A stretch of 64,000 nt of DNA. It comes from Mobula hypostoma. Taxonomy: Eukaryota. Where the stretch lies: NCBI RefSeq assembly GCF_963921235.1, contig NC_086097.1, positions 47,060,001 through 47,124,000 of the forward strand. Reading direction: 5' to 3'. A program made the translations under genes and the position numbers. Below are positions 7,194 through 47,600 of this stretch, one piece after another. Position 1 is the stretch's first letter. Every line of letters starts with the position of its first letter. The notes beneath the pieces are model-generated. The model ran no database searches. It worked only from the letters and a program-made list of their open reading frames with translations, and was not told the DNA's origin.

Positions 7194-9011
7194 TAATGAA
7201 ATCTCTGGTTTATGGATTCATTGTCATTGAGTCTTTGAAGCATACTGCTGTCAATTTGTACTTCCTGTAAAGGGCATAAAAGAATTTTGTGGTGAAGCTA
7301 GTGAGATGCCCTGTCCTAGCAGGATCTGCATCGTATATCTTTTACAAGTGGCACATGTCTTACATTTGTCAGTCCTCTGACTGTGACCTTGGGGTTCATT
7401 CAGCTTGTTTCTCAACCATCAGTGCTCAGAGCAGCTCCAGTAACATTGACTATTATTCTGCGTCTGCCTGTTAAGCTGCATTAAAAGCAGATAATGGGTT
7501 ATGGGACAAGAACATGATGGAAATATTGAACTTACAAGAATTTTGTTTGCTTTGTTTCTGTATGATTTGAAATAAGAACAAGGGTACTGAACTTTTCATA
7601 TGTTACCCATGGCAGCTGCACTCAGTTTTTAAATTGTCACATTATTGGAAATGAATATGGTCTTACAAAAATACAACACAAACTGCTTTAATGACCAGTC
7701 ATCAAGATCAACTTCATTTTACAAAATGATCCATGTACATTGCAATAGTATTAACATTTCTTTGTGTTTGGGCATAAATTTTCAATAAGCCAAGAAAGAA
7801 GTTCAGTCCATTTATACATATCTCTTATTCCTTTCCCAACTAGGTTACAAAAATAATCAATTTTTTTAAAAAAATGAAAGTGGTGTTTTAACGTTGATAG
7901 TTTCCTACTTCTTTCCCATGCTGGAAATTTGAAGCAGTGCTGGAAGTAGCATCTTTGGAAAATGAAGTGGTGAATGTTTCAAATGATCAGAACTTCTCAA
8001 CCTTTGTTCTTTGATCAGTATGCCAGTAGGTACAGGCCACTGCCTTAGGTACCTTGTGAGCATAAAATACTAAATAATTGCTCCCCAAAATACTTTGATC
8101 TTTAGCTAAAAAAAATACTGTAGTTTTTGTTACCTGGTGTAGATTTTATCTTTGTGTCACATAGGTTGCATTAATTGTGATGTTTCTTCTACAGGTCCAA
8201 TAAATTGTTCAAAAAGTGCAGCACCCACCAAATAATTGTCAGATTTTTTTTAATATGCAAGCTATAAAATAGGGTTTTTAATACCTATGATATCTGAGCA
8301 GATAAGCACCCATTAGTTGCATATTGTTAATGGGAATAGTCAGATGTGGACACTGCTAAATCTCAGTAAAATTGCTATAGTGAGTAATATACTAATTCTT
8401 TATTATTTAAGTAGGTATCAACCAATTCTCTACAACAGAAATTAAATGGAGCAGATGATTCAAAATTGTTATTAAACTCAATGCAATTCATGTAACCATA
8501 TAACTGAGTGTCTTTTTAATCATGTTGTTTTGTTTTACTGCCTCTGTGTAAACCACAACTTACAATATTATCTCACATACAACCCAGCACTTATCTCCAG
8601 TAAGGTGCTGTTGATCAAAATAGGAGTTGACTTCCGATATCAAATGCAGTCAGTAGTGTTCAGATATGAATGTGAATTTTGTACAGGCACACTGATTCCA
8701 GTTTCTGGTAATTTAAACACTTGTGATATTAGGGCATCACCCAACATTTCTTTTTGTGTTCAAGGATGACAATTATAAGCTCCACTTCTAAATTGATGTT
8801 TGGCCATAAGTACGATGGCTTACCAAATATTGTAAATTACTCTCCTGAAATTGGCGTGAACCTCTTTCTGTTGTCTTAGTTGTAAGATGATTTACAAACA
8901 AGAATAATTTTATATTCAACACTGAAGAATTATAGAAAACCACAATGGCAGGTTTCACTCAAAAACAAAACAATTAAGTTGCATTTCCCCCAGAAAAATA
9001 TAAAAATATAC

Positions 9012-9335
9012 AAGCAACACACACAAAATGCTGGAGGAGCTCAGCAGGCCAGACAGCATCTATAGAAAAGAGTGCAGTCAACGTTTTGGGCCAAGACCCA
9101 GCTCTTTTACTTCATCCCTTCCCCACTCCTGGTTTCACCTATCTATCACCTTGTTTCTTCCTCCCCTCCCCCCACCTTCTTATCCTGACCCCTCATCTTT
9201 TTTTCTCCAGTCCTGATAGAGAGTTTCGGCTTGAAATATTGACTGTACTCTTTTCCATCGATTCTGCCCGGCCTGTTGAGTTCCTCCAGCATTTTCTGTA
9301 TGTTGCTTGGGTTTCCAGCATCTGTCTTGTTTGTG
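9012..9335. mobile_element. Penelope-like element terminal remnant with inverted partial pLTR
   Basis: 9012-9098 is the reverse complement of about 9221-9308; same terminal sequence as the GIY-YIG-bearing copy ending at 32692; decayed hammerhead core near 9208-9245. Confidence 0.7.
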
Positions 9336-19094: not shown

Positions 19095-22000
19095 CTAGAA
19101 TACTACAGCACAGTACAGGCCCTTTGGCCCTCGATGTTGTGCTGACCCATATATTCCTTAAAAAAAAAACACACTAAACCCACAATACCCCGAAACCCTC
19201 TATTTTTCTTTCATCCATGTGCCTGTTCAAGAGGCTCTTAAATACCCTCCACCACCATCCCTGGCAAGTCATTCCAGGCACCCACAGCCCTCTGTGTAAA
19301 AAACGTACCCCTGCTGTCTCCCCTAAACTTCCCTCCCTTAACTTTGTACATATGCCCGCTGGTGTTTGCTATTCGTGCCCTGGGAAACAGGTACTGGCTA
19401 TCCACCCTATCTATGCCTCTCATAATCTTGTAGACCTCTATCAAGTACCCTCTCATCCTTCTATGCTCCAAAGAAAAAAGTCCCACCTCTGCTAACCTTG
19501 CCTCATAAGACTTGTTTCCCAATCTAGGCAACATCCTGGTAAACCACCTCTGCACCCTCTCCATAGCTTCCACATCCTTCCTATAATGAGGTGACCAGAA
19601 CTGAAAACAATACTCTAAGTGTGGTCTCACCAGAGATTTGTAGAGTTGCAACATGACCTCTCTACTCTTGAACTCAGTCCCCCTATTAATGAAGCCTAGA
19701 ATCCCATAGGCCTTCTTAACTACCCTATCAACCTGTGCAGCAACCTTGAGGGATGTATGGATTTGAACCCCAAGGTCCCTCTGTTCATTCACACTCTGAA
19801 GTAACCGACCATTAACTCTGTGCTCAGCCTTCTGGTTTGATCTTCCAAAATGCATCACCTCACACTTATCCGGATTGAACTCCATCTGCCACTTTTCTGC
19901 CCAACTCTGCATCCTGTCTATATGCTCTTGTAACTTTCGACAGCCTACAGCTCCATCCACAACTCCTCCAATCTTCATGTCGTCCGCAAACTTACTCACC
20001 ATCCTTCCGCCTCTTCATCCAGGCCATTTATAAAAATCACAAAGAGCCCGGGTCCTGGGACAGATCCTTGCGGCACTCCACTAGTCACCGACCTCCAGGC
20101 AGAACACTTTCCTTCCACTACTACCCTCTGCTTTCTTCCTTTAAGCCAATTTTTTATCCAAACAGCTAAGGTTCCACTGATCCCATGCCCCATGACTTTC
20201 TGGATGAGGCTCGTGGGGGACCTTGTCAAATGCCTTGCTAAAATCCATGTAGACCACATCTACCGCCCTACCCTCATCAATTTCTTTTGTTACCTCTTCA
20301 AGAAACTCAATTAGGCTCGTGAGGCACGACCTTCCCTTCACAAAACCATGTTGACTATCCTTGAGTAGACTGTACTTCTCCAAGTGCTTGTAGATCCTAT
20401 TCTTAAGAATCCTTTCCAATAGTTTGCAGACCACCGACGTAAGACTCACTGGTCTATAGTTCCCAGGATTCTCCCTGTTATCTTTTTTAAACAAGGGAAC
20501 TACATTTACCATTCTCCAATCCTCCGGCACCTCCCCTGCAGCCAAAGAGGATTCAAAGATCATAGCTACTGCTCCAGCGATCTCTTCTCTCACTTCCCAC
20601 AGCAACCTGGGATATATCACGTCCGGCCCTGGGGACTTATCAATCTTGATGTTTTTACGAAGATCCAACACTTCTTGTTCCTTAATCTCCATATTGTCCA
20701 GCACACAGGCCTGTTCTACTTTGACCTCACCCTGATCAAGGTCCTTTTCACTTGTGAATACTGAAGCAAAATATTCATTTAGGACCTCCCCAGCCTCCTC
20801 TGCCTCCAGGCACATGTTGCCTTCTTTATCCTTTAGCAGCCCCACCTTCATTCTTGTCATCCTTCTGTTCTTCACATACGCATAAAATGCCTTGGGGTTC
20901 TCCTTCATCCTGTATGCCAAGGCCTTCTCATGCCCCCTTTGAGCTCTCCTAAGTCCTTTGGACTGATGTGTGCGTTTTGGTCCCCTAATCTGAGGAAAGA
21001 CATTCTTGCCATAGAGGGAGTACAAAGAAGGTTCACCAGATTGATTCCTGGGATGGCAGGACTTTCATATGAAGAAAGGCTGGATCGACTAGGCTTATAC
21101 TCGCTGGAATTTAGAAGATTGAGGGGGGATCTTATTGAAACTTATAAAATTCTAAAGGGATTGGACAGGCTAGATGCAGGAAGATTGTTCCCAATGTTGG
21201 GGAAGTCCAGAACGAAGGGTCACAGTTTAAGGATAAAGGGGAAGCCTTTTAGGACCGACATGAAAAACTTCTTCACACAGAGAGTGGTGAATCTGTGGAA
21301 TTCTCTGCCACAGGAAACAGTTGAGGCCAGTTCATTGGCTATATTTAAGAGGGAGTTAGATATGGCTCTTGTGGCTAAAGGGATCAGGGGGTATGGAGAG
21401 AAAGCAGGTACGGGGTCTGAGTTGGATGATCAGCCATGATCATACTGAATGGCGGTGCAAGCTCGAAGGGCCGAATAGCCTACGCCTGCACCTATTTCCT
21501 ATTTATCTAAAGCTTCTTCCTGGCTACCCTATATTTCTCATGAGTCCTTCCTGCTTCCTGCTTCTTATATCTAACATGTGCTTCCTTCTTCCTCCTGACG
21601 AGTTGCCTCACGTGTTTCGTCAGCTCCCTTTTCCTACCATTTTTTCTTTGTCTCAGTGGGACAAACCTATCCTGAACCCAGCACAGGTGGTCCCTAAACT
21701 TCCTCCACATTACTTCTGTGCTTTCACCCTTAAACATCTGTTTCCAATTTACTCTCGCTAGTTCCTGCCTCATCCCTTCATAGTTAGCCCTTCCCCAGTT
21801 AAGCACTTTCCTATTTTGTCTGTTTTTATCCTTTTCCATAGCTATGCTGAAGCTAAGGGGGTTGTGGTCACTCTCACCAAAATGCTCCCCCACCAAGAGG
21901 TCTGCCACCTGATCAGGTTCATTATGCAGAACTAGATCCAGTATGGTCTCTCCTCTCGTTGGCTGGTCCACATACTGTGTCAGGAATCCTTCTTGAACAC

Positions 22001-27778: not shown

Positions 27779-29150
27779 GAACATAGAATAGTACAGCACA
27801 GTACAGGCCCTTCGGCCCACAATGTTGTGCCAACCCTTAAACCCTGCCTCCCATATAACCCCCACCTTAAATTCCTCCATATACCTGTCTAGTAGTCTCT
27901 TAAATTTCACTAGTGTATCTGCCTCCACCACTGACTCAGGCAGTGCATTCCATGCACCAACCACTCTCTGAGTGAAAAACCTTCCTCTAATATCCCCCTT
28001 GAATTTCCCACCCCTTACATTAAAGCCATGTCCTCTTGTACTGAGCAGTGGTGCCCTGGGGAAGAGGTGCTGGCTGTCCACTCTATCTATTCCTCTTAAT
28101 ATCTTGTATACCTCTATCATGTCTCCTCTCATCTTCCTCCTCTCCAAAGAGTAAAGCCCTAGCTCCCTTAATCTGTGATCATAATGTATACTCTGTAAAC
28201 CAGGCAGCATCCTGTTAAGTCTCCTCTGTACCCTTTCCAATGCTTCCACATCCTTCCTATAGTGAGGCGACCAGAACTGGACACTGTACTCCAAGTGTGG
28301 AGTTTCATAGAGCTGCATCATTACCTCGCGACTCTTAAACTCTGTCCCTTGACTTATGAAGGCTAACACCCATAAGCTTTCTTAACTACCCTAGCTACCT
28401 GTGAGGTAACTTTCAGGGATCTCTGGACATGTACCCCCAGATCCCTTTGCTGCTCCACACTATCAAGTATCCTGCCATTTACTTTGTACTCTGCCTTGGA
28501 GTTTGTCCTTCCAAAGAGTACCACCTCACACTTCTCCGGGTTGAACTCCATCTGCCACTTCTCAGCCTACTTCTGCATCCTATCAATGGCTCTGCAATCT
28601 TCGACAATCCTCTACACTATCCACAACACCACCAGCCTTTGTGTCATCTGCAAACTCGCCAACCCATCCTTCTATTCCCACATCCAGGTCGTTAATAAAA
28701 ATCATGAAAAGTAGAGGTCCCAGAACCGATCCTTGTGGGACACCACTAGTCACAAGCCTCCAATCCGAATGTACTCCCTCCACCATGACCCTCTGTTTTC
28801 TGCAGGCAAGCCAATTCTGAATCCACCTGGCCAAACATCTCTGGATCCCATGCCTTCTGACTTTCTGAATAAGCCTACTGTGTAGAACCTTGTCAAATGC
28901 TTTACTAAAATCCATGTAGATCATATCCACTGCACTACCCTCATCTATATGCCTGGTCACCTCCTCAAAGAACTCTATTCGGCTTGTTAGACATGATCTG
29001 CCCTTCACAAAGCCATGCTGACTGTCCCTGATCAGACCATGATTCTCTAAATGCCCATAGCTCCTATCTCTAAGAATCTTTTCCAACAGCTTTCCCACCA
29101 CAAACATAAGGCTCACTGGTCTATAATTACCCGGACTATCCCTACTACCT
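27779..29150 (-). mobile_element. CR1 LINE, 5'-truncated
   Basis: ORFs 28583..29116 (GVPQGSVLGP, FADD) and 27773..28369; TTCTATG tail. Confidence 0.92.
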
Positions 29151-29974: not shown

Positions 29975-30224
29975 GTAAGTCCCATCATTTTTGTCTTTTA
30001 CATACAAATTGGTCTGCTTGTTGTCAAGTACTGAGCGAAATATTATTCTTAAATTTTATATTTTATTGCGTAAAAACTTTCAGTCAACCTGTTTTTATTT
30101 TCCTCTTCACTTTATATTTAAAAGAGAACAAATTACATGTAGTAACTATTGAAAGATTCAATTTCAACCTTTTCCAAATTGCTTCAGCTGTTTGTAATTT
30201 GATATAAAGGTAAATTTTTTGGCC

Positions 30225-30576
30225 ATGACGAAGGAGCAGAATTAGACCATTTGGCTCATGGAATCTGCTTTGCCATTTCATCGTGGCTGATCCATTTTTC
30301 ACCTCAGCCCCAATTTTCTGCCTTCTCCCTGTAGCCCTTCGTGTCCTGACCAACCAATAAACTTATCAATCTCTGCCTTAAATATACATACAGACTTGGC
30401 CTCCACAGCTGCCTGCAGCAAGGAATTCCACGACCCTCTATTCTGAGGCTATGTCCTCTGATCTTAGACTGTTCCGCCATAGGAAACATCCTCTCCACAT
30501 CCACTCTATTAAGGCCTTTCACCATTTGATAAGTTTCAATGAGGTCACCCCTCAATCTTCTGAATTCCAGTGAATA
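30225..30576 (-). mobile_element. CR1 3' fragment
   Basis: SLEFRRLRGDLIETY..VERMFPM in ORF 30304..30705. Confidence 0.8.
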
Positions 30577-30702
30577 TGGTTTGTTGTATTTTGCATCCAT
30601 TACCTCCAAATGAATCAACACCCAAGTGGAATCTTTACTTTTAATGTGGGGTGCATATTCTATTTCTAGACAACTCGAAGCCACAACATAAAGCAGCATA
30701 TA

Positions 30703-31925
30703 CATACTTTGTAAAAATATTCAGCCCCCAAACCTTTGTTCACATAATGAATATTATAACCAGGGATTTTGATCAGTTTAAATGAGAATTTTTTGTGAAT
30801 CACATGCTCATTTTTTTCACAGTAGGTCCCCCCAAAACAGGGAAAATTGTAAACCATGAAAAACTAAAAATTCAAAAGCTGAAATGTCAGCAGTTCTAAA
30901 GTATTTATCCTCCTTTGCTCAGTACTTAGTTGAACCACTTCTTGCAACTATTACAACTAGTAGTCTTTTTGAATAGGTCTCTTTTAGCTTTGCACAACAT
31001 GATGGAGCAAGATTTGCTCATTCCTCCTTGCAAAATTTCTCAAGCTGAGCCAAGTTAGTTGGGCAGCGGGGGTGGACAGCAGTCTTGAGGTCTTACCATA
31101 GAACCATAGAAACTACCACAGAAACAGGCCCTTTGACCCTTCTTGGCTGTGCCGAACCACTCTCTGCCTAGTCCCACTGACCTGCACACGGACCATATCC
31201 CTCCACACACTTCCCAGCCATGTATCTGTCCGATTTATTCTTAAATGTTAAAAAAGAACCCGCATTTACCACCTCGTCTGGCAGCTCATTCCATACTCCT
31301 ACCACTCTCTTACCGGAGATGTTCAGTCGGATTAAGGTCAGGACTTCGACTGGGCCTTTCAAGGACCAGGGTAAATTTCCTTCATTTAAAGCCACTCCAT
31401 GGTTGCTCTGGCTGCATACTTCGGGTCATTGACCTGCTGAAAGATGAACTTCGTCTCAGTTTAAGCTTTTTGGCAGAGACCAGCAGATTTTTATCCAGGA
31501 TCTCTCTGTATTTAGCAGCATTCATCTTCCCATCAGTACTGACCAGATTTCCAGTCCCTGCTGTTGAAAAAGCATCCCTATAGCATGATGCTACCTCCAC
31601 CATACTTTACAATAGGGATGGTGTTACTTGGCTGATGCACAGCATTAGATTTATACCATATGTACTGCTTAGTGTTGACGCCAAAAAGTTCTGACCACAA
31701 GACCTTTGTTCCATATTTTTACAGTATCTTCTAAGTGACAATTTGCAAAGTCTTGATGGGCAAGGATATGCTCTTTTTTTTAGCCAGGGCTGCTTCCTTG
31801 CCTTTTTTCCATAAAGACCCTTTTTGTGCAAGGCCTGAGAGATTGTGAAGCCAAAGACCATCTCCAATTGCAGCCACTGACTTCTACACCTCACTTAGTG
31901 ACTGTTAACATCACAGCTGCCTCTC
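30703..31925 (-). mobile_element. Tc1-family transposon remnant with a nested CR1 tail (31098-31307)
   Basis: Transposase remnants LHKKGLYGKKARKQPWL and GTGNLVSTDGKMNAAKYREIL; the CR1 insert is flanked by 7-bp TSD TCTTACC (31091-31097, 31308-31314). Confidence 0.78.
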
Positions 31926-31934
31926 CAAGTTTCT

Positions 31935-32692
31935 TCTCCCTCATCTCCATTCCGGGCTTTAAACAGTCCTTCCATGTAAGGAAACACTTCACCTGTGAAT
32001 CATCATTTGGGGTTATCTACTGTATCTGATGCTCCCTATGTGGCCGCTCTGCATTGCTCAGACCAGATGTAGATTGGGGGAGCACTTTGTTAAGCACCCC
32101 CCACTTCATCTGCAATAGCGGAATTTCCCAGTGTCAAACCATTTTAGTTCCTATTCCCATTCCCATTCCGACATGTTGGTTCGTGGCCTTCTCTTCTGCC
32201 TCAATGAGGCTACTCTCAGGGTGGAGGAACAACACCTCATATTCCATCTAGGTAGCCTTCAACCTGACTTCTCCTTCCAGTAAAATTCTGCTTTACCTCC
32301 CCCTCCTCCTTCTTCTATTCTCCACTCTTGCCTTTTACCTCCTCTTTTCACCAGTTTATCACCTCCCCCCAGTGCTATCCCCTCATCCTTTTTTTCCCAT
32401 GGTTCACTTTTCCTTCCTATCATATGCCTTCTCCAGCTCTTTGCCTTTTCTACCTATCACATTTCAATCTCTTTCTTCATTCCCCCCCCCCCTTCTCCCA
32501 CCCACCTGGCTTCAGCTATCACCTAGCTTGTCCTCCTCCCCCCACCCCCACCCCCCATCTTTTTATTCTGGCATCTTCCCTCTTCCTTTCCAGTTCTGAT
32601 GAAGGGTCTTGGCCTGAAACGTCGACTGTTTATTCATATCCGTAGATGCTGCCTAAACTGCTGAGTTCCACCAGCATTTTGCGTGTGTTGCT
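31935..32692 (+). mobile_element. Penelope-like element 3' part: GIY-YIG endonuclease remnant + pLTR with hammerhead ribozyme
   Basis: KHFTCESSFGVIYCI*CSLCG resembles the PLE GIY-YIG start; followed by a pyrimidine-rich tract, the hammerhead, and the terminal sequence shared with 9221-9308, 39748-39888 and 63890-64000. Confidence 0.8.
32591..32628 (+). ncRNA. Minimal type I hammerhead ribozyme (Penelope-associated)
   Basis: CAGUU-CUGAUGA-AGGGUCUUGGCCU-GAAA-CG-UC^GACUG: intact core boxes, stem I CAGUU/GACUG, stem II, palindromic ACGU stem III; predicted GUC cleavage after 32623. Confidence 0.72.
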
Positions 32693-32917
32693 AACATTTT
32701 ATCATTTTAATCTGTACATCAGTATTTTGAAATTCTATTAAAAATAGTTTATATATACATTTATCTATAAGTGAGAAAAGTTGTATTTTGTTGCTTTAGT
32801 GCAATATGATTTGGATGTGATAAGCCCAAGACATCTGCTACTTTTGATTGAGTAGCTTAGGTAAAATTGCTATAGAAAAGTACAGTGTTTTGATATGCAT
32901 TATTTTGTTTTTACTAG

Positions 32918-33175
<258 letters not shown>

Positions 33176-34325: not shown

Positions 34326-36160
34326 ATGTAAAAAGGAAAAGACTGATAAAGACAAATGTAGGTCCCCTGCAAACAGAAACAGGTGAATTGATTATGGGGA
34401 GCAAGGACATGGCAGACCAATTGAATAATTACTTTGGTTCTGTCTTCACTAAGGAGGACATAAATAATCTTCCAGAAATAGTAAGGGACAGAGGGTCCAG
34501 TGAGATGGAGGAACTGAGCGAAATACATGTTAGTAGGGAAGTGGTGTTAGGTAAATTGAAGGGATTGAAGGCAGATAAATCCCCAGGGCCAGATGGTCTG
34601 CATCCCAGAGTGCTTAAGGAAGTGGCCCAAGAAATAGTGGATGCATTAGTGATAATTTTTCAAAACTCATTAGATTCTGGACTAGTTCCTGAGGATTGGA
34701 GGGTGGCTAATGTAACCCCACTTTTTAAAAAAGGAGGGAGAGAGAAACCGGGGAATTATAGACCGGTTAGCCTAACGTCGGTGGTGGGGAAACTGCTGGA
34801 GTCAGTTATCAAGGATGTGATAACAGCACATTTGGAAAGCGGTGAAATGATCGGACAAAGTCAGCATGGATTTGTGAAAGGAAAATCATGTCTGACGAAT
34901 CTCATAGAATTTTTTGAGGATGTAACTAGTAGAGTGGATAGGGGAGAACCAGTGGATGTGGTATATTTGGATTTTCAAAAGGCTTTTGACAAGGTCCCAC
35001 ATAGGAGATTAGTGTGCAAACTTAAAGCACACGGTATTGGGGGTAAGGTATTGGTGTGGGTGGAGAATTGGTTAGCAGACAGGAAGCAAAGAGTGGGAAT
35101 AAACGGGACCTTTTCAGAATGGCAGGCGGTGACTAGTGAGGTACCGCAAGGCTCAGTGCTGGGACCCCAGTTGTTTACAATATATATTAATGACTTGGAT
35201 GAGGGAATTAAATGCAGCATCTCCAAGTTTGCGGATGACACGAAGCTGGGTGGCAGTGTTAGCAGTGAGGAGGATGCTAAGAGGATGCAGGGTGACTTGG
35301 ATAGGTTGGGTGAGTGGGCAAACTCATGGCAGATGCAATTTAATGTGGATAAATGTGAAGTTATCCACTTTGGTGGCAAAAATAGGAAAACAGATTATTA
35401 TCTGAATGGTGGCCGATTAGGAAAAGGGGAGGTGCAACGAGACCTGGGTGTCATTATACACCAGTCATTGAAAGTGGGCATGCAGGTACAGCAGGCGGTG
35501 AAAAAGGCGAACGGTATGCTGGCATTTATAGCGAGAGGATTCGAGTACAGGAGCAGGGAGGTACTACTGCAGTTGTACAAGGCCTTGGTGAGACCACACC
35601 TGGAGTATTGTGTGCAGTTTTGGTCCCCTAATCTGAGGAAAGACATCTTTGCCATAGAGGGAGTACAAAGAAGGTTCACCAGATTGATTCCTGGGATGGC
35701 AGGTCTTTCATATGAAGAAAGACTGGATGAACTGGGCTTGTACTCGTTGGAATTTAGAAGATTGAGGGGGGATCTGATTGAAACGTATAAGATCCTAAAG
35801 GGATTGGACAGGCTAGATGCGGGAAGATTGTTCCCGATGTTGGGGAGGTCTAGAACGAGGGGTCACAGTTTGAGGATAGAGGGGAAGCCTTTTAGGACCG
35901 AGGTTAGGAAAAACTTCTTCACACAGAGAGTGGTGAATCTGTGGAATTCTCTGCCACAGCAAACTGTTGAGGCCAGTTCATTAGCTATGTTTAAAAGGAA
36001 GTTAGATATGGCCCTTGTGGCTACAGGGGTCAGGGGGTATGGAGGGAAGGCTGGGTTCTGAGTTGGATGATCAGCCATGATCATAATAAATGGCGGTGCA
36101 GGCTCGAAGGGCCGAATGGCCTACTCCTGCACCTATTTTCTATGTTTCTATGTTTCTATG
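34326..36160 (+). mobile_element. Young 5'-truncated CR1 LINE with an uninterrupted 557-aa RT ORF
   Basis: ORF 34388..36061 (PGPDG, NYRPVSLTS, LDFQKAFD, PQGSVLGP, FADD); (TTTCTATG)n tail; ATGTAAAA repeated at 34326-34333 and 36158-36165. Confidence 0.95.
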
Positions 36161-37161
36161 TAAAAGCAGGAATAGGGGAAGTAGTCAGTATCTGAAGAGG
36201 AAAGTAGAGTTAACATTTTAAGTATTAATTATTTTTCTCTCCACAAGTACTGTCTTTAGTTGTCTTCCACTTGAAATGTTAGCTCTGTTTCTCTTGTAAT
36301 TGAAAAGTAAAATATCTGCTGGTAATCAGAACTAAAAACAAAAAGTGCTGGAAGCACTGTAGGTCAGACAGCATTTGGGAAAAGAAAGCCTTTTTTGGTC
36401 TGAGATCCTTTGCCAGAACTGGGGAAAAAGAGAAGTTTTTTTTTGACAGAGAAAGTAGAGGAGGGATGGACAAAGGAAATAACTGGAAGAGTGAAATTAA
36501 CTCTATTCATGGAGCATTTGAAATCAGATGCTGCTTTATCTGTACCATGTAATGCCAAACAACAAAGCTATGAAACAGAACCATCAGGCTGAGGAAAAAG
36601 TGAACAGGTCAAATTGACAGAAGGCAAAAATGGACCTTTCATATTTGGAAAGAAAGGAATAACAGTTTGGCAAATGTTTACGTTGAATCTGGAAGATGAC
36701 ATGTTGTTCCTCATGTTCTGTAGTTTGTAACATTGTAGGAGTCCACAGAGATATGGGTCAGGGTGATACTAGAGTGGGGAATTAAAGTGGCAGGCAGACC
36801 GAAGTTCATGGTCACTCCTATGTAGTGAATGCAGGTGCTCTAAAGCACTCAACCAATTTGCTTTTGCTTTTCCAAGTATCCAGCAGACCACATTGTGAGC
36901 ATCAGTTGCAATACATGAGATTGGAAAAAATCCATATGAATTTTTGTTTCACTGTTTGGATTGAGTGGTGTGAAGGGAAGGTAAAGGTGCAGTTCAGATT
37001 CCTGTTTTCTGCAGTTTTCTTCATTTTCAAAGGAAATAGTACACATTACCACTGTCTAAACACTACCTAATTAAAAATCTAATTGGTCCTTTTTAATGCT
37101 ACAGTGGAAATAATTGCAGGCTTACTAAGGAAGAAATCTTACTGATTTCTAGAAATCTGAT

Positions 37162-37440: not shown

Positions 37441-38194
37441 ACTGTATCAGAATCAGTATTATACTGACACTGATGTCAAATTAATGTGATACAAAAAAGT
37501 TCTGCTGTTTGAAAGATAATCTAGAATGTTTCACTTGGATTTATTAAAGGAACACAGTTGAAGATAGATACTTTAATGATTCCAAAGGAAATTACAGTGT
37601 CACAGTAGCATTACAAGTGCACAGATATCCACATATACAAATGTAAGAAGAGAAGTAAGAAAGAATTTTAAAAAGTTACTCAAAACAGTCTAATGGGGAG
37701 GGGGGTATCACTTCACCAGCTATAGGTTGACTCATTATAGAGCCTAATGGCCAAGGATAAGAATGACCTCATATAGTATTCTTTGGAGCAGCGCAGTCGT
37801 CTTGCTCTATTACCAGAAGTGCTTCTCTGTTTAGCCAAGGTGGCATGCAGAAGGTGAGAAACATTTTGCAGAGTTTGCCAGGATTTCCCATAGGGTCCTT
37901 TATTCTACCACAGCCTGCAGTTTGACTCCTGTAACAGAGCCAGCCTTTTTTTTTATCAGTTTATTAAGCCTGTTGGCATCACCTGTGTTAATGCCATTGT
38001 CCCAGCACACCACCACATAGAAGATTGTATTGGCGACAACAGACTGGTAGAACCTGTGACGGAGAGGCCTGCATACTTCAAGATCACAAACTTACAGTGA
38101 TCATTACATAGAAGTTCTGGTTAAAGCTTTTTTTAAATTTTATAATAAACTACAGTGTTCACTGACACTTTTTATACTTTTAAAATTTGTAAAG

Positions 38195-38314: not shown

Positions 38315-39747
38315 GTAAGAAACCCAGATTATGATACTTTTGTTTTTCTGGAATTATCTTGATTTCAATATTGTCACCTGGGAGTAATTAATGCTGAGTA
38401 AATATCGGTTTTTGATGACATGTTTTCTCCAGTTCTATATTCACCCACGTTAACAAACTTAGAATTAGCATGAGGAACAGTGATGCAAGCAGAATCTTAA
38501 ATCTTAAACATTGAAGACAAGATGAAAGAAATTTGTCTAGTACTGAAGAAAAGAGCAGGAAGAGAATTGGATCTTAGTATCAGTAAAACCAAATTTGCTT
38601 CTCAGTTAATAATCACTTTCATAATTGTGAAGTTACAGGAAGCTATTGCCATTAAATAGGTTCTTGTATTGAGGATAAAGTTTTCTAGTTGGTCATGTAT
38701 TTTTGGAGATAAAAAGTGCTGATGTACAGTATTTTGGACTGTAATTCAAATCTTTAGGAATGGATAGCTGAACTGTTAAGGATTCAGTTATCAATACATC
38801 ATGTGATAAATGAAAATTTAGCATGTTTTAACCTGTATCCTTTACCAATATATATTATACTTTAGGCAACATTTGATAAATTATTTCCAGATGGATCCCT
38901 TGTGCGTGCATCCAAATATGGAACTAAATTTGTCCATTAGTTCATGCAAGGGATTTTGAATTGCGTCTTAAAAACTTAACTCATTGAAGAGTATATGCAG
39001 TAATAGGTAGCTGGGTCACAGAGGCCTTGTGACTAAACCTTTATGCCCTATCTAGATATTTACCACGTCAGCACCAATAGGGAGTCACAAAATAGCTTTG
39101 TCATTAAGATCCATTCCTTTAGGCTTGTGTTTTTTCAAAGGCCCTTTCAATATATCAGGATTTTCATAATTCATGACTTATGTACTTGTACTGCAAGTGT
39201 ACTCATGTCAACATAGGTAAGAATGGATTAGGTATAACAATCAGGTACCTCCCTTTCCTGCAATGTTTTTTTTTCCTGGAATTTATCCTTGCATCTTCTC
39301 CATTCATCCATTCCTCCCTTTACACTTTCCCAACTTACTGTTTCTTAAGCTGCACATCGACAACTTAATCATAAAATGCACAATTATTTGTACAGATACA
39401 GGCTTATTCTGTTATTTTTATCTCTTCACCGTCAATAAATTGGTATTATGACTATTATATATACACGGTAGATATGGTACTTCTGGTGGTGCCATTAAGG
39501 TGACTTGTGCAAGCAGTTCTGTTGGAAATCATCAAATATTCTTGTTTCAGACTGCTGCACCTGAAATCCACAGCTACAGCCATAGACAATACAGTAAGCA
39601 ACATCGATTTAAGGCTTTTAAAAAAATCTATTGTGACTCAAAGTCCTACAGAGTAAAATCTAACATCATGAATGGCAGTGATACTTCATTCACACGTGAG
39701 GTCAACACTTTTTACACATGCTTTAAAAGAAAGAATAAAACTACAGC

Positions 39748-39888
39748 CTAGGCCTGCTGAAGGGTCTTGACCCGAAACATCGACTGTAACTTTTTTCCAT
39801 AGATGTTGCCTGGTCTGCTGAGTTCCTCCAGCATTTTGTGTGTGTTGCTTGGAGGATTTCCAGCTTCTGTAGGTTTTCTCTTGTTTAC
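39748..39888 (+). mobile_element. Short Penelope pLTR insertion with a mutated hammerhead
   Basis: Flanked by the 11-bp direct repeat AAAACTACAGC (39737-39747, 39889-39899); core reads CTGCTGA-A-GGGTC-TT-GACCC-GAAA-CATC-GACTG. Confidence 0.72.
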
Positions 39889-39916
39889 AAAACTACAGCG
39901 ATGAGGATCCCTGCAA

Positions 39917-41674: not shown

Positions 41675-44320
41675 TGCAGATTGCGAGCTATGATATTGTG
41701 GCCATCACTGAATCGTGACTGAAGGATGGTTGTAGTTGGGAGCTGAATGTCCAAGGTTACTCGTTATATTGGAGGGATGGGAAGGTAGGCAGAGGGAGTG
41801 GTGTGGCTCTACTGGTAAAGAATGGCATCAAATCGGTAGAAAGATGTTGAAGGACTTTGATGGCAGTTATGTGCAGGCCTTCCAACAGTGGCTGGGAGGT
41901 GGACCACAGGTTACAACAGGAAATAGAAAAGACAAGTCAAAAGGGCAATGTTGTGGTAGTCATGGGTGATTTTAACATGCAGGTCGTTTGGAAAAATCAG
42001 GCTGGTAATGGATCTCAAAAGTGAGTTTGTTGAATGTCTAAGAGATGGCTTTTTAGAGCAGTTTGTCGTTGAGCCTACTAGGGGATCAGCAATACTGGAT
42101 TGAACTGGAGGCGATTAGGGAACTTAAGGTAAAAGGACCGTTAGGAACCAGTGATCACAAAGTCTGATGTTGCGTTATTTCAGTGGAGTAAGGGAAATTA
42201 AAGTGGTATGAGAGAGGAGTTGGCCAAAGTAAATTGGAAGGAGCTGCTGGCAGGAATGTCAAAGGAGCAGCAATGGTGTGCATTTCTGGGAAAAATGAGG
42301 AAGGTGCAGGACATATATATTCCAAAAGTGAAGAAATACTCAAATGATAAAATAGTATAACCATGGCTGACAAGGGAAGTCAAAGCTATTGTAAAAGCAA
42401 AAGAAAGGGCATGCAACAAAGCAAAAATTAGTGGGAAGATAGAGGATTGGGAAGTTTTTAAAAACCTACAGAGAGCAACTAAAAAAATCATTAGAAGGGA
42501 AAAGATGACATATGAAAGCAAGCTAGTAAATAATGTCAAAGTGGATAGTAAAAGTTTTTTCAAGTATGTTAAAAATAAAAACAAATGAGTGGATATAGGA
42601 CCACTAGAAAATGAGGCAGGAGAAATAATAATGGGGGACAAGGAGATGGCTGCTGCACTAAATGAATATTTTGCATCAGTCTTGTGGAAGACACTAGCAG
42701 TATTCCTGATGTTGTGTGTGAAGGAAGAGAAGTGGGTGTAGTTCTGTTATGAGAGAGAAAGTGCTCAAAAAGCTGAAAGACCCTAAAGGTTACTTAAGTC
42801 ACCTGGACCAGAGGAACTATACCCTAGGGTTCTGAATGTGGTGGCATTAGAAATGATCTTTCAAAAATCATTGGATTCTGGCATGGTGCCAGAGGACTGG
42901 AAATTGCAAATTTTACTCCATTCTTTAAGAAAAGAGGAAGGCAGCAGAAAGTTAGCCTGACCTCAGTGGTTGGGAAGATGTTAGAGTCAATTGTTAAGGG
43001 TGAGGTGATGGCGTACTTGGTGACAGAGCAAGATAGTACAATGTTAGCATTGTTTCCTTCAGGGAAAATCTTGCCTGATGAAACTGTTGGAATTCTTTGA
43101 GGAGATTACAGGTATAAAGGGGATGCAGTGGATGTTTGTATATTTGGACTTTCAGAAGGACTTTGACAAGGTGCCACACATGAGGCTGCCTACCAAATTA
43201 AGAGATGGTATTACAGGAAAGTTACTAACATGATTAGAGCATTGGCTGATTGGTAGGAAGCAGTGAGTGGGAATAAAATGATCCTTTTCTGGTTGGCTGC
43301 CAGTGACTGATGGTGATCCGCAGGGGTTTGTGTTGGGACCACTCCCAACTTCTATGCTGTATGTAAATGATTTAGATGATGGAATAGATGGCTTTGTTGC
43401 CATGTTTGCAGATGATATGAAGATTGTTGGATGGGCAGGTAGTGTTGAGGAAACAGGTAGGATGCAGAAGGAGAATGGGCAAGAAAGTAGCAAATGAAAT
43501 ACAATGTTGGAAAATGCATGGTCATGCACTTTGGCAGTAGAAATAGATGTGTGGTCTATTTTCTAAATGGGGAGAAAATCCAAAAATCTGTGATGCAAAG
43601 GGACTTGGGAGTCCTTGTGCAGAACACCCTGAAGGTTAATTTGCTGGTTGATTCGGAGGTGAGAAAGGCAAATGCCATGTTAGCATTCATTTTAAGAGGT
43701 CTAGAATACAAGAGCAAAGATGTGATGCTGAGGCTTTATAAGGTACTGGTGAAACTTCACCTTGAGTATTGTGAACAGTTTTGGGCCCTTCATCTTAGAA
43801 GAGATGTGCTGGCGTTGGAGAGGGTCCAGAGGAGGTTCATAAGGATGATTCTGGGAATGAAAGGGTTATCATACGAGGAACGTTTGATGGCTCTGGGTCT
43901 GTACTCGCTGGAATTCAGAAGGATGAGCGGGAATCTCATTGAAGAATGTTGAAAGGTCTAGACAGAGTAGATGTGGAATGGATGTTTCCCATGGTGGGAT
44001 TGTCTAGGACAAGAGGGCACATCCTCGGGATAGAGGGGCACCCTTTCAGAACAGAGATGCAGAGAAATTTCTTTAGCCAAAGGTTTGGTGAACTTGTGGA
44101 ATTTGTTGCCACATGCAACTGTGGAGGGTGTATTTAAGGCAGAGAAGTCATTGGGTGTATTTAAGACAGAGATTGATAAGTTCTTGTTTGGGCATGGCGT
44201 CAAAGGTTATGGGGAGAAGGCCGAGAACTGGGGTTGAGGAGGAGAAAAAAGATCAGCCATGATAGAAGTTTGGAGCTGACTCGATGGGCCAAATGGCCTA
44301 ATTCTGCTCCTACGTCTTAT
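41675..44320 (+). mobile_element. CR1 LINE ORF2 (APE to 3' end), degenerate
   Basis: MGDFN-like APE region, FADD in ORF 43303..43497, RT C-terminus in ORF 43494..43952. Confidence 0.88.
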
Positions 44321-44609
44321 GGATAAAAATAAGTTGTAAACTCTGTCAGCTCCATCATGGACACTAGCCTCCCCAGTGTTTAGGACACCCTCAAGCAGCG
44401 ATGCCTGAAAAAGGTGGCATCCATCATTAAGGACCCCATTTGCTAGGACATGCCCTCTTCTCATTGCTACCTTCAGGGAGGCATAGGAGCTTACAGGCAC
44501 ACACTCAACTATTCAGGGATAGTTTCTTCTCCTTGCCGTCCGATTTCTGAATGTCATTAAACCCACGAACACTACTTCACTATTTTTTTTTTTTGCTTTT
44601 TGCACTACT

Positions 44610-47600
44610 CTCCTGCCTTCTCCTGGTATCTCTTTATGCCCTGACTAATCAAGAATATATCAATCTATGCTTTAAATATACCTAATGACTTGGCCTCCAC
44701 AGCTGCCTGTGGCAAAGAATTCCACAGATTCACCTCTCTCTGGCTGAAGAAATTCCTCCTCACCTCCATTCTGAATGTATGTCCCTCTATTGTGAAAATC
44801 TGTCCTGTGGTCTTAAACTCTCCACCATAGGAAACATCCTCTGCACATCCGCTCTATTGAGACCTTACAACATTCGATAGGTTTCAATGGGATCCCCCTT
44901 CATTCTTCTGAATTGCAGCGGGTACAGGCCCAGCACCATCAAATGCTCCTTATATGACAAGCCTTGTATGGATAAAGTAGTGGCCGATTGGCAGGAGGGA
45001 AAGAGAGGGAATAAAGGGAGCCTTTTCTGGTTGGTTGCCGGTGACTAGTGGTGTTCCACAGGGTTTTGTGTTGGGACTAATTCTTTTTGTTGTATGTCTT
45101 TGATTTGGATGACGGAATTGATGGCTTTGTTACAAAATTTGCAGACGGTATGAAGCTAGGTGGAGGGGCAGGTTGATTTGAAGAAGTAGAGAAGCTACAG
45201 AAGGACTTATACAGATTAGGAGAATGGCCAAAGAAATGGCAGATGGAATACAGTGTCAGGAATTATATGGTCATGCAGTTTGGTAGAAGAAATAAAAGGT
45301 TTCACTATTTCTAAATGGAGAGAGAGTACAAAAAATTCGAGGTGCAAAGGGAATTGGGAGTCCTTGTGTAGAATTCCCTTAAAATTAATTTACAATGTTC
45401 GCATTCATTTCAAGAGGACCAGAATATAAAACCAGATGATGAAATATTGAGATTTCATAAAGCACTGGTGAGGCCTCACTTGGAGTATCATGAGCAGTTT
45501 TATCTGAGAAAGGATGTGCTGAAACTGGAGATGGTTCAAAGGAGGTACACAAAAATGATTCCAGGATTGAATGGCTTGTCATATGAAGAGTGTTTGATGG
45601 CTCTGGACCTGCATTCACTAGAATTCAGAAGAATGAGGGGTGACCTCATTGAAATCTATCAGAAGGTGAAAAGCTTTTTTAGAGTAGATGTGGAGAAGAT
45701 GTTTCCTATGGTGGGAGAGTCTAAGACCAGAGGTCACAGCCTCGGAATAGAGGCGAGTCCTTTTAGAACGGAGATGAGGAATTTCTTTAGCCAGGGAGTG
45801 GTGAATCTGTTGAATTCTTTGCCACAGGCAGCTGTGGAAGCCAAGTCTTTATGTATATTTAAGGCAGAAGTTGATGGATTCTTGATTGTTCGGAGCATGA
45901 AGGGATATGGGGAGAAGGCAGACGATTGAAAGGAACATTGGATGAGCCATGATGAAATGGCAGAACAGACTTGATGGGCCAAATGGCCTAATTCTGCTCC
46001 TAATTCTTATGGAATCATTTTCGTGAACCTCTTTCGAATCCTCTCCAATGTCAGCGCATCCTTGCTTAGATAAGGAGCCCAAAACTGCACATGATACTCC
46101 AAGTGAGACCTCACCAGTGCCTCATAAAACCTCAACATTGCATTCTTGCTTTTATGTTCTAGTATTCTTGAAATGAATGCTAGCATTGCATTTGCCTCAC
46201 CACTGATTGAACCTGCAAATTAACCTTTAGGGAATCCAACACGAGGACCTGCAAGTCCCTTTGCACCTCAGAACTTTGAATTTTCTCGCCGCTTAGGAAA
46301 TAGTCTACACTTTCATTTTTTCTACCAAAATGCATTACCATATACTTCCCGGCACTTTATTCCATCTTCTTTTCCCATTCTCCTAATCTGTCTAAGTCCT
46401 TCTGTAGTCTCTCTACTTCCTCAACATTACCTGCCCTTCCATGTATTTTTGTATCCTCCGCAAGCCTGGCCACAAAGTCATCAATTCCACCATCTAAATC
46501 ACTGACATATGATGTTAAGAGAAGGAGTCCTAACACCGACTCCTGTGGAACACCATTAGTCACCAGCAGCCAACCAGAAAAGGCTCCCTTTATTCCCACT
46601 CTTTTCCTCCTGACAATCAGCTAATGATCTAACCATGCTGATATCTTTCCTGCAATAGCATGGACTCTTAGCTTGTTAAGCAGCCTCATATGTGGCACCT
46701 TGTCAAAGGTCTTCTGAAAATCCAAGTACACAACCTCCACCAATTCTCCTTTGTGTATCCTGCTTGTTATTTCTTCAAAAAATTCCAACAGATTTGTCAG
46801 GCAAGGTTTTCCCTTAAGGAAACCATGCTGACTTCAACCTATTTTATCATGTTCCTTCAAGTGCCCGAAAACAACATTCTTAACAGTTGACTCCAACATC
46901 TTCCCATCTAAGGTTAGACCAACTGGCCTATAATTTCTATCTTCTGCATCACTAGGTTCTTGAAGAGTGGAGTGACATTTGCAATTTTCAAGTCCTCCAG
47001 AACCATGCTAGAATCTATTGATTCTTGAAAGATCATTATTAATGCCTCCACATTTTCTTCAACTACCTCTTTTAGAACCCTGGGGTGTAGACAATCTGGT
47101 CCAGGTGACTTACCTACCCTTCAGACCTTTCAGTTTCCCAAGCACCTTCTCCCTACTAGTGCAACTTCACTAGTAGTGCCCCTGACACTTTCAAACTTCC
47201 GGCATACTGCTAGTGTCTTCCTCAGTGAAGACTGATGCAAAATGCTTTTTCAGTTTGTTCATTGTTTCCTTGTCCCCCACTACTACTTCTTCAACATTAT
47301 TTTCTAGTAGTCCGTTATCTACTCTCACTTCTCTTTTACACTTTATATATAACTGAAGAAACTTTTGGTATGCTCTTTAATATTATTAGTTAGCTTACCT
47401 TTGTATTCAATCTTTTCCTTTTATATGACCTTTTTAGTTGTCTTCTATTGGTTTTTAAAAGGTTCCCAATCCTCCAGCTTCCCACTAATTTTTGCTCTAT
47501 TATATGCCCTCTCTTTGGCTTTTAAGTTGGCTTTGACTTCTTTTGTCAGCTATGGTGTGTCATCCTGCCTTTAGCACACTACCTCATCGTTGGGATGTAT

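Follow-up and report, generated by a model that had tools for sequence, protein, structure and literature searches.

The DNA analysed here (the window, 64,000 nucleotides in all) contains a minimal type I hammerhead motif at 32591-32628, in an intron of MARK3. It is a worn copy of a retroelement ribozyme of a known kind. Judged from its sequence and from folding models, this copy is most probably (roughly 0.83) an inert, neutrally decayed leftover without host function, and not a device for the control of MARK3. Its misfolding was computed; that it neither cleaves nor serves a function is what we infer. The positions of the features are collected in Table 1.

The window was searched on both strands with a descriptor of the minimal hammerhead, and a single site was returned. 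The hammerhead at this site is beyond chance: none of 500 dinucleotide shuffles matched the descriptor without loop III, and 9 of 500 matched it when any loop III was allowed. The two boxes by themselves were not significant (3 matches against 2.29 expected; 41 of 100 shuffles reached 3), and the fold of 32570-32650 had a z-score of -0.72, with 52 of 200 shuffles equally stable. A scan with Rfam 15, proposed as a check in the initial annotation of this DNA, returned no hammerhead model at E values up to 5, and 8 unrelated weak matches. Descriptor and direct reading agreed on the anatomy first described (both boxes, the GUC triplet, stems I and II and a palindromic ACGU). An alternative register of stem II (A-U, without the bulge) was tried and rejected, with a probability of 0.03 against 0.96 for the G10.1 register in the isolated 38-mer.

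The site was compared with the features by which minimal hammerheads of Penelope-like elements (PLEs) are recognized. It has the invariant core (CUGANGA, GAAA and UH), the extra base (A 32603) and a palindromic 15.2-16.2 without helix III, and it lies in a pLTR, 311 nt downstream of a GIY-YIG remnant of the same orientation. Inverted and truncated copies, as found in the window, are typical of PLEs. The highly conserved (not invariant) G10.1-C11.1 pair is replaced by G-U, which is read here as decay of a family member and not as non-membership.

Table 1. Features in and around the hammerhead motif (positions are those of the window)
Feature	Position	Strand	Remark
Inverted pLTR pair	9011..9309	both orientations	both cores broken or truncated
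MARK3 intron preceding the activation-loop exon	29975-32917	+	2.9 kb
Broken C-terminal GIY-YIG endonuclease remnant	31941..32280	+	stops and frameshifts; 5' truncated, boundary approximate
Pyrimidine-rich 3' UTR / pLTR part	32281..32590	+	aligns with copy 9116-9307
Splice-acceptor-like tract ending in CAG	32571..32593	+	putative, from sequence score; overlaps stem I 5' arm
Minimal type I hammerhead (min-HHR)	32591..32628	+	read from sequence and descriptor
Stem I	5' arm 32591-32595, 3' arm 32624-32628	+	5 bp
Position 2.1	32595	+	T here, C in family; G-U wobble closing stem I at core
C3-A9 box (CUGAUGA)	32596-32602	+	
Extra bulged A	32603	+	between positions 9 and 10.1
Stem II	32604-32615	+	pairing 32604-07/32612-15; 4-5 bp
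Position 11.1	32615	+	T here; deaminated CpG, G10.1-C11.1 to G-U
G12-A15.1 (GAAA)	32616-32619	+	
ACGU palindrome	32619-32622	+	helix III absent
C15.2, G16.2, U16.1, C17	32620, 32621, 32622, 32623	+	cut predicted after C17
pLTR tail with hairpin 32644-32683	32629..32692	+	copy ends at 32692, family runs on
MARK3 exon encoding the DFG motif and the activation loop	32918..33154	+	237 bp; from protein identity
Short pLTR copy	39748..39888	+	141 bp; core broken

The motif stands, as first annotated, at the end of a decayed Penelope GIY-YIG remnant. The reading frame of the remnant is broken, and it shares 26 of 36 and 36 of 74 residues with a relative, P0129. The latter gave a sub-threshold Pfam match to GIY-YIG (E 0.0021), and 89 relatives were found; the remnant itself had no match in Pfam or in a word-index protein search. 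P0129 carries a CX3CxxC linker such as Neptune elements retain, and the window remnant begins after this linker and lacks the RT. The Neptune clade is recognized by RT phylogeny and by a CCHH GIY-YIG domain preceded by a CX2-5CxxC linker; the PLE at 31941-32692 may well be of Neptune type.

Other remains of mobile elements were observed in the window. A Tc1/mariner-like transposase remnant lies directly upstream of the Penelope piece (about 30700-31900, minus strand; weak Pfam match to HTH_Tnp_Tc3_2, E 0.0012), and near 31100-31310 an apparent short retroposon end was seen by eye to be inserted. A second, older GIY-YIG remnant (36727-36843, minus strand) is 46% identical to P0121 across 39 residues, and no descriptor-positive hammerhead was found near it. 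Many decayed LINE RT remnants, which we take to be CR1-like, are present on both strands of the MARK3 introns (805-1164, 20014-20208, 28480-28888, 34994-35449 and 43171-46698). Several of the relatives returned by phmmer are host-gene models with pieces of the element attached. The database gene models P0142, P0143, P0145 and P0173 fuse an endonuclease piece to host proteins (RecQ5, DUF4518, a GPCR and NYAP); these fusions are probably prediction artefacts and possibly the result of exonisation.

Eight MARK3 exons were mapped in the window. The hammerhead is in sense because all of them lie on the plus strand. The translation of the activation-loop exon is identical in 79 of 79 residues to ray MARK3a (records from Mobula and Hemitrygon), and downstream exons were closer to MARK3a than to the MARK1 and MARK2 sequences tried (at 38189, 97.6% versus 88% and 90%). 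From C17 to the activation-loop exon the distance is 294 nt. A sense-strand position in the intron just before this exon, with the cut site about 295 nt ahead of it, had been proposed in the initial annotation and was confirmed.

Within the 64 kb, five further pieces of the family were found, namely the inverted pair, the short copy and two tail-only pieces; the family alignment was limited to these and the 32591-32628 copy (six pieces). The short copy is the nearest on the same strand, 7.1 kb downstream (two introns' worth). Its A6 is changed to C and its G16.2 to A, by which the palindrome is broken, and its stem I 5' arm is largely gone. Its start is a few bases 5' of the core, and it is bordered on both sides by a direct repeat of 11 nt without mismatch (39737-39899). 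Many family contigs lose similarity just 5' of 32596, and short copies beginning at the hammerhead core may be common. The arms of the inverted pair (87 nt, 80% complementary) represent a typical Penelope 5' inversion, and the pair could form a long hairpin in pre-mRNA. Pattern scans of metagenome, viral and prokaryote genomes gave no further family copies.

Contigs of related genomes were aligned to 32280-33020 at a likeness of at least 90%, using the runs of organisms B, C, D and F (four of the 24 listed). The pLTR repeat is very abundant in rays: in all four runs it was matched by contig pieces in large number (22,793, 24,503, 22,115 and 18,262), which are contig counts and not copy numbers, and the alignment depth was concentrated on 32555-32704. 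The insertion appears to be common to organisms B, C and D, because their unique-flank contigs span from the exon into the element tail (from 32673 in B and from 32663 in C and D), with 20-30 letters on the element side, below the 31 needed for the bridge count. The contig of organism F begins at 32747, which is 3' of the element.

The core had been annotated as intact, in contrast to the other copies in the window, with both chance and constraint considered as causes. The copy retains every one of the 11 invariant bases, as well as the GUC triplet and the two CpGs (15.2-16.2 and 17-1.1), and in this sense the description holds; it does not hold for the pairs 1.1-2.1 and 10.1-11.1, which are G-C in the family and are now G-U. 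At position 2.1, C accounts for 497,407 of 551,906, 999,402 of 1,132,892, 450,205 of 507,994 and 339,025 of 396,200 depth units (86-90% in all four runs), and is also found in both close window copies that retain the position. At 11.1, C was present in 21-39% of the depth; at both positions the 90% alignment filter biases the depth toward the T of the window copy. Since 32615-32616 reads CG, CA or TG among the window copies, position 11.1 was C in the ancestor and its CpG was deaminated. Both positions have changed from C to T, so that both core-flanking pairs are now G-U. A G10.1-U11.1 pair lowers hammerhead activity; a literature search on its rate effect retrieved no paper. The G10.1-C11.1 pair is one of four features listed for PLE motifs by Cervera and De la Pena (PMC4209133). 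Among natural hammerheads, one is reported to have U10.1-U11.1 (PMC3088659).

The amount of decay was compared with what chance would leave. Over 50 positions of the tail, the copy departs from the majority of the others in the window at 5, and those others depart from it at 2, 7, 3 and 10. For a copy that is about 10% diverged, the probability that the 11 invariant bases are untouched is 0.31, and at 5% divergence it is 0.57. The CUGANGA region is kept in two of the five other window copies, both of which are broken. One intact core among three is unremarkable, because the probability of at least one is 0.68-0.92 at 10-5% divergence. Where the region is kept, the other copies are broken as annotated, but the contrast amounts to one in three. 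The changes at 2.1 and 11.1 together cost 3.7 kcal/mol; for 48% of 351 random pairs of non-core transitions the cost was at least that high, so the changes have not avoided the structure. In the orthologous flanks of four species (F partial), 14 changes were counted in 226 nt, by which 0.68 core changes are expected, so that this comparison has no power. The depth at 32555-32704 is swamped by paralogues, and the orthologous contigs break inside the repeat. The copy has most likely decayed neutrally since its insertion.

A co-opted intronic ribozyme under selection, tuning MARK3 splicing or turnover in the manner of the amniote RECK hammerhead, is extremely improbable. Domesticated intronic hammerheads do exist (PMC6155905), and the copy lies in sense near an acceptor, with its invariant core intact and with an insertion that organisms B, C and D also appear to have. 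An old insertion should be present in several lineages even in the absence of selection, an intact core is expected by chance, and the copy has no helix III, no partner, weakened core-flanking pairs and a predicted misfold.

Folding was predicted with nearest-neighbour models, in which proteins and tertiary contacts are ignored. In the isolated 38-mer, stems I and II are formed, but the core bases are paired into a rod with a probability of 0.96-0.98. A fold of the RECK type, competent as a monomer and with helix III, was not obtained from this copy, which has no helix III and folds as the rod. Within 161-619 nt of context at 37°C, the hairpin of stems I and II had a probability of 0.01-0.02, versus 0.43-0.64 with the family letters, and the hammerhead arms were taken up by pairing with the upstream tract and with the tail. 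The stems of the window copy are weaker than those with the family letters (stem I, -3.1 versus -4.7 kcal/mol; stem II, -2.0 versus -3.7 kcal/mol). Several points speak against inertness: the invariant bases, the GUC triplet and both CpGs survive, G-U still pairs, U10.1-U11.1 occurs in a natural hammerhead, and the hairpin is briefly favoured during transcription, with a predicted probability of about 0.7 for a transcript ending at 32655 and 0.2 for one ending at 32665-32675. RNA-like runs contained 0.15-0.17 of the sequence words, about the share of the exon, and this carries no evidential weight.

That PLE minimal hammerheads depend on dimers, as stated in the initial annotation, agrees with published work in which cleavage was absent from a single min-HHR and low in dimers and trimers (PMC4209133). 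There, tandem motifs swap strands, pair through the palindrome into helix III and are cut after GUC. A review likewise describes Penelope hammerheads as cleaving as dimers (PMC6765202). The anole Penelope hammerhead showed no cleavage without the protein of its element. It was not needed for insertion in vitro, and no RNA-seq reads ended at its site (PMC11167929). Introns cut by a slower hammerhead were still spliced, whereas a fast HDV ribozyme stopped splicing (PMC2995048). For self-cleavage as a dimer, no intact second copy is present in the 64-kb window.

These results bear on the functional proposals of the initial annotation. Neither co-transcriptional cleavage nor an effect on MARK3 splicing or turnover is supported. 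The copy lacks both core-flanking G-C pairs, a misfold is predicted for it within its flanks, the window contains no competent partner, and the intact core is what chance would be expected to leave. Incidental cleavage at a low rate, in trans with pLTR transcripts or through the protein of an active element, would have little effect on MARK3 and is unlikely. The helix III formed between two copies would have 4 bp and -1.7 kcal/mol, stems I and II are weakened relative to the family letters, and the best predicted homodimer differs from a double hammerhead. Introns are short-lived, which also counts against such cleavage. In its favour are the intact invariant core and palindrome, the great abundance of the family, the cutting of Penelope hammerheads as dimers (PMC6765202) and the protein-assisted cutting shown for the anole element (PMC11167929).

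A different activity is suggested by the tract that ends at the stem I 5' arm. The CAG at 32591-32593 has a pyrimidine share of 0.90 and an AG-free zone of 65 nt. It exceeds all 8 true MARK3 acceptors both in pyrimidine share (0.60-0.80 in these) and in AG-free length. A share of 0.90 was reached by 4 of 2150 YAG sites on the plus strand, three of them in the pLTR family, and by 3 of 1968 on the minus strand. The same site in the copy at 9209 (9188-9210) also scores 0.90, and a CTGAC motif resembling a branch point lies upstream. The Penelope element of Drosophila virilis contains an intron that stops at the 5' end of helix I (PMC4209133). If the element in MARK3 acts at all, it might be as a cryptic acceptor; joining of the upstream exon to 32594 would give D-L-K-F-stop and a poison transcript or, with an ATTAAA at 32737, a truncated one. 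We consider this very unlikely. The score is crude and may reflect composition, the whole pLTR strand being rich in C and T (a second site with 0.90 is at 32353), and in all 7 of the database isoforms that were aligned A-E-N follows D-L-K as normal, although a protein set would omit forms containing a stop. Because the strand is C/T-rich and all seven isoforms are spliced normally, the acceptor at stem I is a lead only. Splice gating of the hammerhead, for which there is a hint in D. virilis Penelope, is a remote prospect; here the CAG would be outer stem I, the 5' arm of the ribozyme would be exchanged by splicing, and sense copies in introns would be poison acceptors or cleavage points. If true, it would give a MARK3 transcript stopping right after the catalytic-loop exon, and it would connect two unexplained traits of Penelope elements, their introns and their slow ribozymes.

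The preferred reading, that of an inert leftover, can be put as a sequence of events. A 5'-truncated Penelope-like retroelement would have been inserted in sense into the MARK3 intron ahead of the split among several ray lineages and would since have decayed neutrally. In the active element, the motif would be one half of a double hammerhead, in which tandem pLTRs pair through ACGU into helix III and are cut after GUC, probably aided by the protein of the element. The lone copy would be transcribed passively in MARK3 pre-mRNA, where it has no competent partner. It would fold as an inactive rod or be displaced by flanking RNA, and would then be spliced out and degraded.

The single locus is of little weight, as it holds a decayed copy of a ribozyme type already known from retroelements. 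Taken as a class, the hammerhead copies of ray genomes are very numerous, dated and in neutral decay, and with them it can be asked genome-wide whether intact sense ribozymes or splice acceptors are purged from introns. The literature search retrieved no paper pairing MARK3 with a hammerhead ribozyme and, by title and start of abstract, none on ray hammerheads.

Several known systems are comparable. The RECK, C10orf118 and DTNB hammerheads of amniotes are also of type I and lie in introns of host genes; they are conserved among amniotes and cleave in reporters as single motifs, whereas the ray copy lacks helix III, is decaying and belongs to a huge family. Vertebrate non-LTR retrozymes also carry type I hammerheads derived from pLTRs; one chondrichthyan is reported among them, and 42-44% of the Xenopus copies are intronic (10.64898/2026.07.22.740005). 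They form tandem arrays of at least two units with complete hammerheads, unlike the ray copy, which is single, without a tandem unit in 31700-33000, and attached to GIY-YIG sequence. With Penelope of D. virilis the copy shares the position of an acceptor at the helix I 5' arm; splicing is documented there, and here there is a resemblance in sequence. The hammerhead of the Anolis element PAc (Poseidon) likewise lacks helix III and lies in a Penelope pLTR, but PAc is complete and active, with a ribozyme that cleaves together with the protein of the element (PMC11167929), and the ray ORF is a fragment. PLE minimal hammerheads are named from bony fish, coelacanth, Xenopus and reptiles, with rays not among these in the available parts of the sources. 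The ray copy differs from them in its G10.1-U11.1 and G1.1-U2.1 pairs and in a helix II of 4-5 bp, versus 7-8 bp in Schistosoma. It shares with them the core boxes, the extra base between 9 and 10.1, the palindromic 15.2-16.2 without helix III, a helix I of 5 bp, a pLTR placed behind a GIY-YIG domain, and occurrence mostly as single truncated copies by the thousand.
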